Shown here one piece after another: positions 19,200 to 44,103 of a stretch of DNA of 64,000 nucleotides (position 1 is the stretch's first letter; each line of letters opens with the position of its first letter). This DNA comes from an uncultured virus (IMG/VR IMGVR_UViG_3300029705_000102) (taxonomy: Duplodnaviria > Heunggongvirae > Uroviricota > Caudoviricetes): IMG/VR virus record IMGVR_UViG_3300029705_000102; one strand, 5' to 3'. A program made the position numbers and the translations under genes. The notes beneath the pieces are model-generated. The model was not told where the DNA came from and searched no databases. It saw only the letters and a list, made by a program, of their open reading frames with translations.

Positions 19200-19265
19200 A
19201 TATTAAAGGCATGGATATACTCCATGCCTTTATTTTTTTTACTTATGACAATTATAACAAAATAT

Positions 19266-19665
19266 TAATCAGGCTTGCGTATTGGAGTTCGCCGTGGGCG
19301 CGCAGTTGGGTTCTTTTTCATTTTGTTTCCTTTCGGGTGAAAGTTTTCCATATATACCTCTGAAGTGTTTTTACGTTTTTGCCATGCGTTGAAACTCCAT
19401 TTTTTATATATCCTTTGTGAAATTTTTGCAAATCATAAAAAACTCCGTTTTTTAATATTTCTCCATACGCATTCTTTTTATCAGCCTGATTACTTACTAA
19501 GATAATAGGTCATCTGAGTCTGTCGATCTTCCTAGTCTTAGTTTGTATAATCCAAAGATCGCCAGGACGCAGCGAACCTTCAATTTTCCATTTGATTGGG
19601 GGAGGGGCGTCAATATATCATACAAAAAATGGATACAGCAGCATCTAAGAATAGATGCTGCTGTA
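19266..19665 (+). ncRNA. Putative late ncRNA carrying an array of anti-(SD+AUG) modules
   Basis: Promoter at 19256-19268; 5' end pairs with 19461-19492; five antisense translation-initiation modules at 19311-19446; terminator stem 19634-19665. Confidence 0.6.
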
Positions 19666-20940: not shown

Positions 20941-21066
20941 AACATAAAAATAAATGCACTGATTTGCTCAAAGGGCATTTATATTTTCCTTTTATTTTTG
21001 TATGTACTAAGAATGGTAACTCCTAAAGACGAGGCATGTACTCTTGTAGTACATGCCTTTGTTTTT
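20941..21066 (+). ncRNA. Putative late small RNA with an anti-(SD+AUG) module
   Basis: AACA TAAAAA TAA promoter; 5' hairpin TAAATGC/GCATTTA; CATTTATATTTTCCTTTT; terminator near 21032-21066. Confidence 0.45.
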
Positions 21067-21145
21067 TCTCAAATAAAAGGATAAGTGTATATTATAATAG
21101 TGCCAAAAACAAAATATTAATTAAAAAGAATAGGAGGGCAATCCT

Positions 21146-23973: not shown

Positions 23974-26367
23974 ATGGCAAAAGATAATAAAGCTATAGCT
24001 AGAGCTAATCGCAATATTCAAAACCTTGCTAATGGCATTAATCAAGGTATGGACGATCTCTATAGGAGCACATATCTAACAACGCCACAGCAAGGAAAGG
24101 ATCTTAGAGATCTCGGTAGTCGGATTAACTCTAGTATTGATAATATTGTAAATAGAAATATGGATACAATTGGCATGCCAAGCGTATCCAAATTGTATAC
24201 GCGTATTGCAGCTACTCAAGGAAGAGGTACAAAGAATAATAGAGTCATTAGTGAGCTTGAAAGCCTATTTGATAATGGTCTTATTAACGATGATATCTAT
24301 AGCTTGTTTATGAGTAATAGATATTTGAAAGAGCTTGATAATGAAATTGATACTGTTTGTAAGTACATGCCCAAACTCGAAGAAGCACTTCTAGTACAAA
24401 AGGATTGTGTTCTTTCAGCAGATCATTTCTCTAAAGATTTTATTAATATCACTAGTGCAGCAGGTTCCACAGAACTTGATGGAAGTACTTTTGCAGAAAG
24501 AATATCTGATCTTAAGAAAAAGTATAAACTTGCTGAATTAGTTGATCATATTTATGAAGAAACTTCTAAATATGGTGAAAAATTTGTATATAGGGTTCCT
24601 TATAGTACTGCAATTGCAAGACTTCTTGCAACTAAAGCAAATACTACTCTTGTGAAAAATGAAAGCACAGGCGAAACAAGAGAATTTGAAATGAATACTT
24701 ACTTTACTATTCATATGGATAATAAATCATTTGCTATCAAAGAAGCTACAATTGGAACTGAGATGGTTAATGAAAGTGCTACTCATATAGTAAAGAAAGA
24801 GAATAAGAAGACTGGAACGTTTTCTGAAGTAGAGTCTGCAATTCTTGGTGAAAAAGAACAGTTTGATCTTAATATTGAAATTTGTAAGTCTGGTATTATA
24901 GAATCTGCTGTTGCAAATGTAAAAGCAGCTTTTAAGAAAAAGATGAAATTCTCTGCAGACTCCATGAACAAAATTTATGAGCAAACCATTTTAAGAGAGT
25001 CTGGAAATTCAAAGACACCAGAAGCGAAAGGAAATCTTGAATTTGACGATAAGAACCCTTTAGATGCAAGGTTGATTGCTAATGATGGATTAGTCACAGG
25101 AGAAGCACCATCGCTTCCTGATGTTAAAGCTCCCGGATGCGTAATCCAGAAGTTGCCTAGAGAAAATACTATTCCCATCTATATAGATGATATGTGTATG
25201 GGATACTATTATTTCGAGGTAAGAACTGTAGATGATTCTGAATCATTCTTTGGATTTAAGAATATTCTTGGTGACCCTCTAACAAATATGCGTGGAGATA
25301 AGCGTAATACATTTAATTCTGTAGATACACAAAGGCAAGATGACGCGATAAAATATGTTGCAGGTCAGCTGTCTGGCTTTATTGATAAGCAATTTGTAAA
25401 TAATAATCAGGATCTTGCTAAAGAGATTTATATGATTCTTAAATACAATGATCTTTTCAATACGCCATCGATTGATAGAATTAAAGTTACATTTGTACCT
25501 CCGGAAGATATGGTTCATTTCTATTTTAGACTTGATCCACAAACTCACAGAGGTATCTCAGATCTTGATAAGTCCCTTATACCTGCAAAGATTTATTCGA
25601 GCTTGTATATAACAAACTCTATTGGAATTCTTACAAGAGGTCAAGACAAGAGAGCATATTATGTAAAACAAACAGTTGATACCAATATTGCTCAAACACT
25701 GCTTAATACTATTGCACAGATTAAGCAAGGTAACTTTGGAATTAGGCAGTTCCAAAATATAAACAATATCCTTAATATTACAGGTCGTTTCAATGACTTT
25801 GTAATTCCCACAAATGCTTCAGGCGATCCTCCTATTAGTGTAGAAGTTATACCTGGGCAAGAGTTTAACACTTATGAAGATTTGCTTGATAAGCTTGAAG
25901 AAATGGCTATCAATAGTACTGGAATACCGATAGAGATTATTCAGGCGAGACAGTCTGTTGATTATGCTATGCAACTTACAATGTCTTCTAGCAAAGTTCT
26001 AAGATTCTGTTATAAGAGACAGGAGCTATTTGAAGATGATCTTGCTGAATTGATCGGTCCTCTATATAATTATGAATATAGAGATACCGCAAGTATAGAA
26101 GTTAAACTTCCGCCTCCTAGTTTCATAAATGTAACAAATACAAATCAGCTTGTTGATAATACTAAAACATTTGTAAATTCTATTGTAGAAGTCGAATTGG
26201 CTAATGAGGATAATGAGGCTCTTAAGAATGAGTACACCATGGAATTAATTAAACATTATCTTGGAAGCCATTTGGATATTAAGTCTCATGAAGATATACT
26301 CAATAGATGTAGGTTAAAGGTTGCTGCAAAAGCTGATGAATCCCACACGGATGATGGTGGATTTTAA
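23974..26367 (+). CDS. Portal protein
   Basis: KRAYYV...DFVIPTNASGDPPISVEVIPG...AINSTGIP resembles the T4 gp20-type portal core; late-type promoter at 23923-23935. Confidence 0.75.
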   Translation: MAKDNKAIARANRNIQNLANGINQGMDDLYRSTYLTTPQQGKDLRDLGSRINSSIDNIVNRNMDTIGMPSVSKLYTRIAATQGRGTKNNRVISELESLFDNGLINDDIYSLFMSNRYLKELDNEIDTVCKYMPKLEEALLVQKDCVLSADHFSKDFINITSAAGSTELDGSTFAERISDLKKKYKLAELVDHIYEETSKYGEKFVYRVPYSTAIARLLATKANTTLVKNESTGETREFEMNTYFTIHMDNKSFAIKEATIGTEMVNESATHIVKKENKKTGTFSEVESAILGEKEQFDLNIEICKSGIIESAVANVKAAFKKKMKFSADSMNKIYEQTILRESGNSKTPEAKGNLEFDDKNPLDARLIANDGLVTGEAPSLPDVKAPGCVIQKLPRENTIPIYIDDMCMGYYYFEVRTVDDSESFFGFKNILGDPLTNMRGDKRNTFNSVDTQRQDDAIKYVAGQLSGFIDKQFVNNNQDLAKEIYMILKYNDLFNTPSIDRIKVTFVPPEDMVHFYFRLDPQTHRGISDLDKSLIPAKIYSSLYITNSIGILTRGQDKRAYYVKQTVDTNIAQTLLNTIAQIKQGNFGIRQFQNINNILNITGRFNDFVIPTNASGDPPISVEVIPGQEFNTYEDLLDKLEEMAINSTGIPIEIIQARQSVDYAMQLTMSSSKVLRFCYKRQELFEDDLAELIGPLYNYEYRDTASIEVKLPPPSFINVTNTNQLVDNTKTFVNSIVEVELANEDNEALKNEYTMELIKHYLGSHLDIKSHEDILNRCRLKVAAKADESHTDDGGF

Positions 26368-40632: not shown

Positions 40633-42885
40633 TTATTCATCATCACAATCATCAGGAATTGAAGCAGAGGCTGTAACCTTATCAGGATCTTCAAAGAAGA
40701 TCATAGGCTCATAGAATTCTCCAGGATTTGGCTTGAATTCTTCTTCCTTAGGCGGTTCTATTCCTTGAATTGCATACTGAGGTTTTTCCATAAAGAATAG
40801 ATCCATAAATGATGAACCATTCTTTTTGAAGGTTAGCGGATTATAAAGAAGTTTTCCTACTTTTTGATAGCTCATAGATACCGTGATACTAGGATTGCAA
40901 GTCAATGCTCTGTTGAGTGACAAAATCTCATAATTAGGATCATAGAGAAACCACTTCGGCTTCTTTAAAATATCCTCAGGATCTCTTAATTGATTGGACA
41001 CAATAACTTCAATATGAGTTGAAGATATTCCTAAACCACCGTCATTAGCTGTCTCCAGAAGTGCTTGAAGAAGTTGGTGGATATCCATTCCTTTAATCGT
41101 ACTATTTTTATTCAGTAGATTATTCAAGTGATTAAGAGTCTTAGAAAGTTCATTATTCTCGATAGGAACAATAAACAATGTCATTTCTGCAAGTTCAGAA
41201 AAGTCTACATGAATACATCCATCAATAGGCTCACCTTTCTTTCTAATAACAGAATTAAATTCATTAGAAATATAAAGCTTTGCTCCTTTGTCATTGGATA
41301 TATGGAATGTTTCTCCATTCTGAATTACATCAAATTCTGTAATATATTCATTATAAATAGAAGGTCCATCATCGTCATCTCCCCCGAGATCATCGTCTTC
41401 TTCGTTTTCAAGTTCAATGAACTCCGGATCAAGAACGAAAGTACAATTCTTAGATTCGGCATCGGAATTAATACGAATCATGTTTCCTTCAACTTCAAAG
41501 AGCTCTGCAAATTTATCAACCCAAACAAGTTTTTCAACAAATGTTTCAAGAAGATGCTTTGCAGAAAGAAGCTTCTGAGTAAGGCTAGATGACAATGTTT
41601 CACTAGCGATACGTCCTACATTAACACCAAAATTAATTGCAGCATCATAAACTGTATATGCAAGATCCCCATAGCATTTATAACAAATACCTTGTCCTCT
41701 TGCTGCTGATGCACAAGTAATAGGCGAACGTAATAGAATTTCTTTACCGATAAGATGCTTATCTTTAGGAGTAATAAGCATTTCAACCCCATGAGGATCT
41801 AATCTATAATATCTATTACGAAGCATTTTTAATGTTTTAGCGTCCTTAATAGTAATTCTGACAAAATTAGGACTGCAGCAATCATAGTTGGGATCAGGAT
41901 TCAAAAACGAATCCATATTATTCAAACCAAGAAGACGTGCAAAGTGTCCAGAAGAACCAACGTTATTATATTTAATAATTTGCGCTGTTCTACCTGTAGA
42001 TGATTCAATGAAATAATCAATGGGATTTGCTACACCGCCATTGATAAATGAGTTATAAATCGGAACAGGGAAAATGCCTCCATGACCATCAGGCTTGCTT
42101 CCGATATTAATTGTAAATTCTTTAAACTGCTTCGGGTTTATTCCTTCAGAAGCTCTACAAGCATCTGCAAGACAATGATCATAACCCAAATATTGTTTTG
42201 CATTTTTCATAATATCGATTGCTCTGTTAGCGAATTTCATACCTTCTGCTTTAACATCTTCAATCGGTACATTATGAAGATCTGCATGCATACATTCATA
42301 GAATTCAGGGCATTTCTGCATAAGCAAAACATTATCTTCAAGATTAACTGTATTTGCCAAAAAGAGTGCAAATTCATCTATATCATGAATACGATGCAGC
42401 GTATCATCAATGATATTATTAAGCTCTTTATTAGAGAATTTTTTGCGGCTAGTATCGATAAGAAATTTATCAATATAATCTTTAATTGTATCTTTCTTTA
42501 TCTCATTTGCAAAGAATACATGCTTTGATTCTACAGGAACCCCTGTCTGAATTAGCATATCCCACATAATAAGATTTAACAAATAATCTGGAACCATCAA
42601 ATCCAAAACTTTCTTATCATAAAAATTTACGACAATAAATGATTTTTGAATTAATTCTGTTTCGATTCCATCTCTAAGAAGATTTAAGACAGAATCATAA
42701 TGACTCTGCCAGTTTGCTTTTGTAATGTCTTTTGTTTTGACAAAGACTTGCTCACCATTAACTAATGGGGCATAAATACCATAATTTTCTGGGTGGCCTA
42801 ATGCGGATGAGCCACAATCCTGAACGAAATAACCCTGCTCAAGGCGCATTCGTTCAATTTTTTCGTTGATTGTTTGTTTTGCCAT
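40633..42885 (-). CDS. Non-virion RNA polymerase beta' subunit, C-terminal part
   Basis: GRTA...VGSSGHFARLL (bridge-helix region), LRSPITC...ICYKCYG, TQKLLSAKH, HIEVIVSNQLRD. Confidence 0.9.
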   Translation of the reverse strand: MAKQTINEKIERMRLEQGYFVQDCGSSALGHPENYGIYAPLVNGEQVFVKTKDITKANWQSHYDSVLNLLRDGIETELIQKSFIVVNFYDKKVLDLMVPDYLLNLIMWDMLIQTGVPVESKHVFFANEIKKDTIKDYIDKFLIDTSRKKFSNKELNNIIDDTLHRIHDIDEFALFLANTVNLEDNVLLMQKCPEFYECMHADLHNVPIEDVKAEGMKFANRAIDIMKNAKQYLGYDHCLADACRASEGINPKQFKEFTINIGSKPDGHGGIFPVPIYNSFINGGVANPIDYFIESSTGRTAQIIKYNNVGSSGHFARLLGLNNMDSFLNPDPNYDCCSPNFVRITIKDAKTLKMLRNRYYRLDPHGVEMLITPKDKHLIGKEILLRSPITCASAARGQGICYKCYGDLAYTVYDAAINFGVNVGRIASETLSSSLTQKLLSAKHLLETFVEKLVWVDKFAELFEVEGNMIRINSDAESKNCTFVLDPEFIELENEEDDDLGGDDDDGPSIYNEYITEFDVIQNGETFHISNDKGAKLYISNEFNSVIRKKGEPIDGCIHVDFSELAEMTLFIVPIENNELSKTLNHLNNLLNKNSTIKGMDIHQLLQALLETANDGGLGISSTHIEVIVSNQLRDPEDILKKPKWFLYDPNYEILSLNRALTCNPSITVSMSYQKVGKLLYNPLTFKKNGSSFMDLFFMEKPQYAIQGIEPPKEEEFKPNPGEFYEPMIFFEDPDKVTASASIPDDCDDE

Positions 42886-42984
42886 TTTCATTCTCCTTTT
42901 ATGTGTATTTTGCTTTTCGTTGTTATTACTTTGTTTTTGAAACATTAACAACTTATTTTTATCATAATTATAATATGTATCTAA

Positions 42985-43092
42985 AAAGAAATATGCGATA
43001 GTCCGAAGACTATCGCATACGTACTTTATTACAATGAAAGGAGATAAACAAAATGAACTTCAACCGAAAACATCTTTGTTTATATAGATGTT
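42985..43092 (-). ncRNA. Putative late small RNA with a complete anti-(SD+AUG) module
   Basis: Promoter AACA TCTATA TAA at 43092-43080; UUCAUUUUGUUUAUCUCCUUUC; terminator with a cUUCGg loop at 42991-43020. Confidence 0.55.
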
Positions 43093-43093
43093 A

Positions 43094-43525
43094 TTACTTT
43101 CTGAAATATTCAGGAATAGAAGCTTCAACAAATTCTTTATCGATAGCTTTCATAACAACAGCAGATTTATCGCCATATTTAGCAATGAGATCATTCATTA
43201 CTCTACGTTCCTGAATACGAAGAGATACAAGCTCATCCCAAAGGGGATCATCCTCTTCCTTTGCCATATGGCAAACTGTAGTTCTGAGAAGAGTATTCAC
43301 ATTACCGTCAGCAAGTCTATCAATCATATCCTGATTGATAACTCCAGCTTCCATCATAGCTTTGGCTTCATCAGATTTAATAAATTCTTTAATCTTCGCA
43401 GAAGGAAGATTGCTCAAAGTTTCAAAAACAACTGCCTCACGAAACTGATTAGGGTTCTTGAGGGCACTTTCTAACTTGACATCAGCAGATCCAAAGATCT
43501 TGCTGTTTACCATTTCCATAAACAT
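43094..43525 (-). CDS. Hypothetical late protein
   Basis: AGGAGG RBS; late-type promoter at 43550-43562. Confidence 0.8.
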   Translation of the reverse strand: MFMEMVNSKIFGSADVKLESALKNPNQFREAVVFETLSNLPSAKIKEFIKSDEAKAMMEAGVINQDMIDRLADGNVNTLLRTTVCHMAKEEDDPLWDELVSLRIQERRVMNDLIAKYGDKSAVVMKAIDKEFVEASIPEYFRK

Positions 43526-43653: not shown

Positions 43654-44103
43654 ATGCGAATTCCAGACACATTAACAAGACAGCAAGCAATGTATTTGCT
43701 TGAAAAATATTTATTAGACGAAGAATCAACCCCTAATTTATCACTAGACCAGTTAACAAATGGCTATATAAAAGCAGATCTTGTGCAGCAAGTAAACTGT
43801 GATAGAGTTCATAGAATTTTATATAAGCATAGTAAAAAATATAGAAATCAATCGCCTCATAAGTCTGAGCTTTTAAATTATGAACAAGCTATAGGCAAAA
43901 TAATGGGATATTTGCTTGGAGACAATTATTATATCGTAGATCCAGTAAATATGGAGCAAGGAAATTCTGTAATTGTACATGACATTTTAAAGCAATATTC
44001 TAAGCGTTATAGAAAAGAGCTTAGAGAAGAGTCTAAAATGGATACTTACTTTAGATTATTTGGCCGTACTATAATAATCAAAAAGAAGGAGAAGCGTAAA
44101 TGA
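43654..44103 (+). CDS. Hypothetical protein
   Basis: GGAGGT RBS; coupled to the downstream polymerase gene; both promoter types upstream. Confidence 0.8.
   Translation: MRIPDTLTRQQAMYLLEKYLLDEESTPNLSLDQLTNGYIKADLVQQVNCDRVHRILYKHSKKYRNQSPHKSELLNYEQAIGKIMGYLLGDNYYIVDPVNMEQGNSVIVHDILKQYSKRYRKELREESKMDTYFRLFGRTIIIKKKEKRK

Follow-up and report, generated by a model that had tools for sequence, protein, structure and literature searches.

The gap behind gene 43094-43525 of a gut-type AR9-like jumbo phage probably holds, judging by its sequence, a clade-restricted gene for a late anti-start RNA, i.e. an RNA that mirrors a translation initiation region. The putative unit has its own promoter and terminator and contains no conserved ORF, which is the make-up of a small RNA gene. 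That this RNA would act in trans, late in infection, as an antisense RNA against a non-self mRNA (from the host or else from a co-infecting element) we regard as an evenly balanced proposition, and about half of the weight of this reading comes from one small ORF of gokushoviruses.

The window, which is the whole 64-kb stretch of DNA analysed, is the first part of a 71-kb virus record. It was assigned to an AR9-like jumbo phage because the RNA polymerase beta-prime subunit encoded downstream of the gap (40633-42891, minus strand) is about 30% identical to those of the Bacillus phages AR9 and PBS1; the non-virion RNA polymerase of this phage is thus of the AR9 type. The site (121 nt) is identical in the near-identical 224-kb genome G001, which is 90% complete, and in three further contigs (4/4). 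The relatives G003 (75% complete) and G004 (89% complete) were used for comparison. With a custom ORF-plus-SD script, 214, 166 and 205 genes of at least 50 aa were called in G001, G003 and G004, respectively. The gene upstream of the gap (43094-43525, minus strand, 143 aa, function unassigned) gave no family match in a domain search and is conserved in the jumbo-phage clade, with 175 homologues. A late promoter of its own precedes it (43562-43551, minus strand), and its mRNA would therefore also carry the anti-start module in the 3' UTR. Elsewhere in these genomes, window positions 43654-44103 (plus strand) match the Pfam family Tad8, an inhibitor of type II Thoeris, with an E value of 3.5e-20; this match is present in G003 too and was not found in G004. 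G001 encodes a reverse transcriptase (RVT_1) at 147630-149117 (L023:7630-9117, minus strand), which from its likeness we take as a possible part of a diversity-generating retroelement, and G004 carries at about 97400-107400 (minus strand) nine repeated ORFs of 18-20 codons with a strong SD and a common M-x-x-Y-x-N-I-G/D-like start.

The late promoter of the unit, of the AACA-N6-TA type attributed to the non-virion RNA polymerase, lies on the minus strand at 43092-43081 (AACA 43092-43089, T 43082, A 43081). It follows the stop codon TAA of the upstream gene (43096-43094) after a single base, in keeping with a preliminary description of this DNA that had placed a late promoter right behind this stop. 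In AR9, late promoters have the consensus AACA-6N-TA/G with the transcription start on the last base (PMC5312081), and by this rule the predicted +1 is 43081. The same description had put the terminator about 65 nt behind the promoter; the intrinsic terminator is present (42983-43020, with a 13-bp stem 43020-42991, a cUUCGg loop and a U-tract), at a distance of 61 nt after +1. A terminator scan gave 2 terminator-like sites compared to a shuffle mean of 0.2. The gap was said to be free of ORFs, and the sole minus-strand ORF that touches it is a 23-aa TTG ORF (43131-43060) starting within the upstream gene. Between promoter and terminator lies the anti-initiation core at 43036-43058, which comprises an anti-SD (43036-43043), an anti-spacer and an anti-AUG (43053-43055). 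The 23-mer complementary to this core was found on the plus strand as described before, and its start does lead to a short antisense ORF of 53 aa, at 43053-43214, which overlaps the upstream gene. Translation of this ORF is unlikely, given its non-conserved length and frame. The next gene, for beta-prime, has its own late promoter (42935-42924) and an early-type AT-rich promoter motif at 42965-42978 (minus strand), which inspection by eye showed to be conserved in every full-length relative examined and is of a type that matches the early promoter consensus of AR9 (PMC5312081). A strong sigma-70-like promoter (11/12 positions) on the plus strand at 42945-42974 overlaps this early motif and faces the terminator hairpin.

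The late promoter motif is not enriched across the whole window (82 observed, 88 expected). In G001, 49 of the 71 AACA-N6-TAA sites are intergenic, intergenic DNA making up 10% of the genome, and 39/71 have a gene of the same strand starting in the next 120 nt, compared to 4/159 and 7/171 for control spacers of 5 and 7 nt. The AACT-N6-TA version is enriched as well (31/170 sense-upstream). AACA-N6-TA is thus a mark of gene starts in this phage. Few 3' UTRs have an anti-start motif in their first 75 nt: three cases were found among the 305 3' UTRs of three related genomes. In a census of late promoters, an anti-start was found at most 110 nt behind 19 of the 106 intergenic promoters that lead into no gene, a count that is too high because palindromic terminators and promoters facing the starts of real genes were left in, and behind only 1 of the 197 that do lead into a gene. 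Some of the census matches are real small genes or palindromic terminators. The census shows several late anti-start units per genome, including 19256-19665 and 20952 in the window. The RNA of the gap had been placed in the same antisense family as 19256-19665; the two share the design (late promoter, anti-SD, anti-AUG-AA and a common 12-nt core), a likeness that falls short of demonstrated homology. A second single-module candidate at 20941-21070 (plus strand) has a late promoter, anti-AUG, anti-SD and terminator, and a homologous late-promoter anti-start unit is found at G001 195313-195412 and G003 25367-25481, the mirrored ATG being lost in G003.

We examined the same site in relatives through homologues of gene 43094-43525, which gave 12 loci, with 9 lineages read at the site. 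In the three closest lineages (the window, G003 at 60% and L079 at 59% protein identity) the promoter, anti-AUG-AA, anti-SD and terminator are all present, the promoter of L079 and G003 being an AACA or AACT version at the equivalent place, and the sequences behind the promoter differ among the three. In four lineages that are further removed (L096/L081, L083-85, L086 and L087) the site is empty, the stop being directly followed by the terminator; L082 is ambiguous at the site and L080 is cut off. The locus thus resembles a slot that four lineages leave empty and three others fill with three different anti-start sequences. That two relatives have a promoter and an anti-start of other sequence at this very place supports the earlier proposal of a separate late unit. 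It also bears on the possibility that there is no separate regulator here, the anti-start being the remnant of a small gene on the opposite strand or a cis-acting element of the 3' UTR. A decayed gene would leave an SD and an ATG on the opposite strand, and the real small genes and palindromic terminators among the census matches point the same way. We nevertheless hold this to be decidedly unlikely: the late promoter is kept in 3/3 lineages while the sequence behind it changes, and the hairpins of G003 and L079 have U-tracts on both sides, so that sense transcription would be cut off. A cis-acting role fits poorly with the computed pairing of the RNA in G001, in which the upstream gene's own mRNA start ranks 107/214 and that of beta-prime, the next gene, 58/214.

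The relatives speak as well to the plus-strand ORF 43053-43214 being real and the minus-strand RNA being its cis-antisense regulator, as in a type I toxin-antitoxin-like pair. The sigma-70-like promoter on the plus strand would serve such an ORF, and in the window the T-run behind the plus-strand hairpin is weak. Such promoters, however, are hardly more frequent than in shuffled sequence (6 compared to 4.1), and the -35 element is not evident by eye in G003 or L079. Moreover, the mirrored ORFs of the three lineages are 53, 16 and 42 aa long, have no common frame and are unrelated past the first codons, and that of the window runs 121 nt into a real gene. A toxin-antitoxin-like pair is consequently most improbable.

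The predicted fold is alike in the three RNAs, each of which pairs its anti-AUG arm with the 5'-terminal 11-12 nt and leaves the anti-SD open. In the window the 5' hairpin spans 43046-43081, with the first 11 nt paired to the anti-AUG arm, and the computed unpaired probability of the anti-SD is about 0.9. Compared with shuffled sequences, the 5' hairpin alone gave fractions of 0.24, 0.037 and 0.56, shuffles being beaten in one of the three RNAs; with composition-kept shuffles of the arm the fractions were 0.17, 0.10 and 0.0075 (clearly better in one of three), and with arms taken from intergenic DNA 0.054, 0.034 and 0.0035. The 5' arm is common to G003 and L079, so that these two folds are not independent. 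Taken together, the models give moderate support to a free anti-SD with the 5' arm over the anti-AUG in all three RNAs. This arrangement is relevant to a generic anti-SD decoy that would damp many mRNAs with a GAAAGGA-type SD and AUG-AA, as a form of host shut-off. The anti-SD and the anti-AUG-AA are the sole parts common to all versions, as expected of a decoy, and the anti-SD presumably resembles the 3' tail of Firmicutes 16S rRNA, which we count in its favour. On the other hand, a folded-away anti-AUG, if the prediction is right, favours specificity, spacer lengths differ between the versions, and GAAAGG-type SDs also stand on the phage's own late genes (6/57). A decoy function is therefore very unlikely in our estimation.

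No target in the phage's own genome stands out. With up to 3 mismatches allowed, the window has a single copy of the 23-mer, and as a candidate exact target in IMG/VR it was discarded, all four matches being the locus itself; the word exact, used earlier for the anti-start, thus applies to its own opposite strand and to no other IMG/VR copy. The 21-nt core at up to 3 mismatches gave only itself in five related records, including the 90%-complete G001, and the search for near variants proposed in the preliminary description accordingly turned up no second copy in G001 at this threshold. Over the 214 genes of G001, pairing of the RNA with own start regions had a mean of -21.5 kcal/mol (sd 4.3). 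The best, at -35.6 kcal/mol, was the start of a ThyX-like thymidylate synthase gene of the Thy1 family (G001 112312-113712). Pairing of a late small RNA of this kind, imperfect and lowering a gene of its own phage (a ThyX-like gene, or one in the missing tenth of the genome), would be an alternative to a foreign target. A mild point for it is that the ThyX-like start ranks 1/214 for the window RNA and its orthologue 3/166 for the G003 RNA; an own target may also be missed because G001 is only 90% complete. Against it, the energy of -35.6 kcal/mol is equalled by the best non-cognate starts, of G003 (-36.7 kcal/mol) and G004 (-36.4 kcal/mol), and the registers of the window and G003 ThyX pairings differ. 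Furthermore, early and late genes of G001 pair alike with the RNA (p 0.41), and among 19 candidate units none had an own-genome match above the non-cognate level. We consider regulation of an own gene to be unlikely.

For non-self targets, positions 43026-43081 were compared by blastn with GenBank phages, which returned 106 records, the best 30 of which were inspected. The top record among these (MT838395) was set aside, being no microvirus and having an ATG followed by a stop. The second among the best 30 of the 106, with E = 1, is Gokushovirus WZ-2015a (KT264784), where the matching stretch spans the start of a 35-aa ORF that is unannotated and lies between VP4 and an M15 endolysin. The computed duplex between window positions 43031-43073 and the start of this gokushovirus ORF (L051 4330-4370) has 41 base pairs, 35 of them Watson-Crick and 6 G-U, with two 1-nt bulges and no mismatch, at -51.9 kcal/mol. 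After the cost of both folds, net binding is -38.2 kcal/mol for the gokushovirus compared to -25.7 kcal/mol for ThyX, the best own gene. All the substitutions in the gokushovirus match (6/6) are G-U compatible, which is extra information because blastn does not reward G-U pairs. The 35-aa ORF gave no family match in domain searches. It is conserved in a gut gokushovirus clade of 5.5-5.8-kb contigs, where it usually lies just before the M15 endolysin, and it stays where the endolysin is absent. M15 peptidases of gokushoviruses have been linked to Faecalibacterium, with a suggested role in lysis (PMC3394797).

In IMG/VR, a scan with a fully wobble-degenerate core found 50 loci, namely 4 self, 14 of the gokushovirus clade and 32 others that fall by eye into about 18-22 families. 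Among the 46 non-self loci, a wobble-aware alignment score of 76 was reached by the clade (13/14, the other scoring 71), and the next best was 62. In a simulation of 19.8 million start regions, 174 matched the core and none reached 76; the extrapolated tail, about 0.8, corresponds to about 0.1 chance matches expected in IMG/VR, under a model whose training set was 393 start regions, most of them belonging to these phages, and with the position of the core gap seen beforehand. Another scan returned 14 non-self matches, all from the one gokushovirus clade, with a pattern that is post hoc and hence no independent evidence. The margin in duplex energy is thin, chance matches reaching -48.6 and -47.8 kcal/mol and, for another module, -53.0 kcal/mol. 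In other collections, blastn against plasmids gave 18 weak records, and two matches in GTDB, in gammaproteobacterial and Ignavibacteriaceae genomes, were dismissed as chance, in a single scan with a pattern built after the gokushovirus match, which a host target with other mismatches could escape. Five of the 30 scanned wobble-core genes outside the clade (L166, L170, L183, L197 and L177) encode holins or an endolysin, which probably reflects common MDF/MDL starts.

Covariation of RNA and target across lineages was not seen, the orthologous RNAs having neither a gokushovirus match nor a clear IMG/VR outlier. When the search was replicated with the G003 RNA, none of 29 non-self IMG/VR loci stood out (best score 52). 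None of 12 candidate RNAs besides that of the gap matched the 62 gokushovirus loci, the G003 and L079 RNAs scoring 38 and 46. In blastn, the G003, L079, 19256-array and 20952 RNAs gave only chance-level matches among the 4 records that were compared (Smith-Waterman scores 48-59), and no target was found for the 20941-21070 module. For the G003 RNA (L092:1952-2003), matches of 25 nt, at chance level, were seen in the porcine microvirus MT135429, where VP1 starts, and in MT836875, where a gene for a penicillin-binding protein starts. The first module of the 19256 array (19286-19345) agrees at 23/23 nt with the start of a gene in satellite phages of Streptococcus pyogenes, a match also rated as chance level; satellites are still a plausible class of target. 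We thus treat the gokushovirus 35-aa ORF as a lead, and its being the target of the window RNA as a tentative idea that is more doubtful than probable.

In the trans-acting reading, an RNA of about 95 nt would be made late by the non-virion RNA polymerase, and the upstream mRNA would carry the same sequence at its 3' end. Its anti-SD would be an open toehold, with the anti-AUG held beneath the 5' arm. Upon pairing with the SD of a target, the toehold would displace the 5' arm, and the resulting long duplex over the SD, the start codon and the first codons would block ribosome loading. Late timing would fit the prevention of lysis of a shared cell by a fast competitor. More generally, a lytic jumbo phage of this kind may use exchangeable, protein-free antisense RNAs to silence gene starts of co-infecting viruses unrelated to it, here through the gokushovirus pre-endolysin ORF, so that the fast ssDNA phage would neither complete its cycle nor lyse the cell until the jumbo phage has matured; this is a speculative proposal, which we put forward with low confidence. 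Very little has been charted of the small RNAs that lytic jumbo phages make. Should the gokushovirus match prove true, it would mean protein-free RNA silencing of one phage by another, it would predict that two uncultured phages share a host, and an unannotated 35-aa gene of microviruses would gain in importance.

Comparison with Rfam gave no match in the window at the gathering score, c4 included, and 9 weak matches far below threshold. In a literature search that covered few subscription journals, we found no description of a phage RNA against a microvirus, nor, outside the AR9 start-site tables, of late anti-start RNAs in AR9-like phages. The closest late units are those of AR9 itself, a phage of the same group with the same promoter consensus, in which seven late promoters are reported to drive antisense RNA (PMC5312081). 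As far as they are described there, the AR9 antisense RNAs lie opposite real genes, in cis (PMC5312081), whereas the window RNA would come from a 3' UTR and mirror a start absent from its own genome. Several RNAs of phages are known to pair with the ribosome-binding site or its surroundings and so prevent translation, namely c4 of P1/P7, STnc6030 of BTP1 and DicF of Qin, c4 and STnc6030 acting in immunity or exclusion (PMC12197685). According to the accounts given in that source, these three belong to temperate phages and target mRNA of their own or a closely related phage, or host ftsZ, and none comes from a lytic jumbo phage or is directed against an unrelated ssDNA phage (PMC12197685). PreS/LPR1 of lambda is a trans-acting phage small RNA that acts on a non-self mRNA during infection, as proposed here; it is described as an E. 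coli small RNA of the Hfq network that enhances dnaN translation (10.1101/2024.10.31.621285), while a long and nearly continuous anti-start duplex is predicted for the window RNA. VIPR, finally, is a programmable phage RNA directed against a competing mobile element, which is like the purpose proposed here (10.64898/2026.10.15.759431). As reported, it depends on a protein, its guides are non-contiguous, and it acts on DNA by repressing transcription, whereas the anti-start of the window RNA is contiguous.
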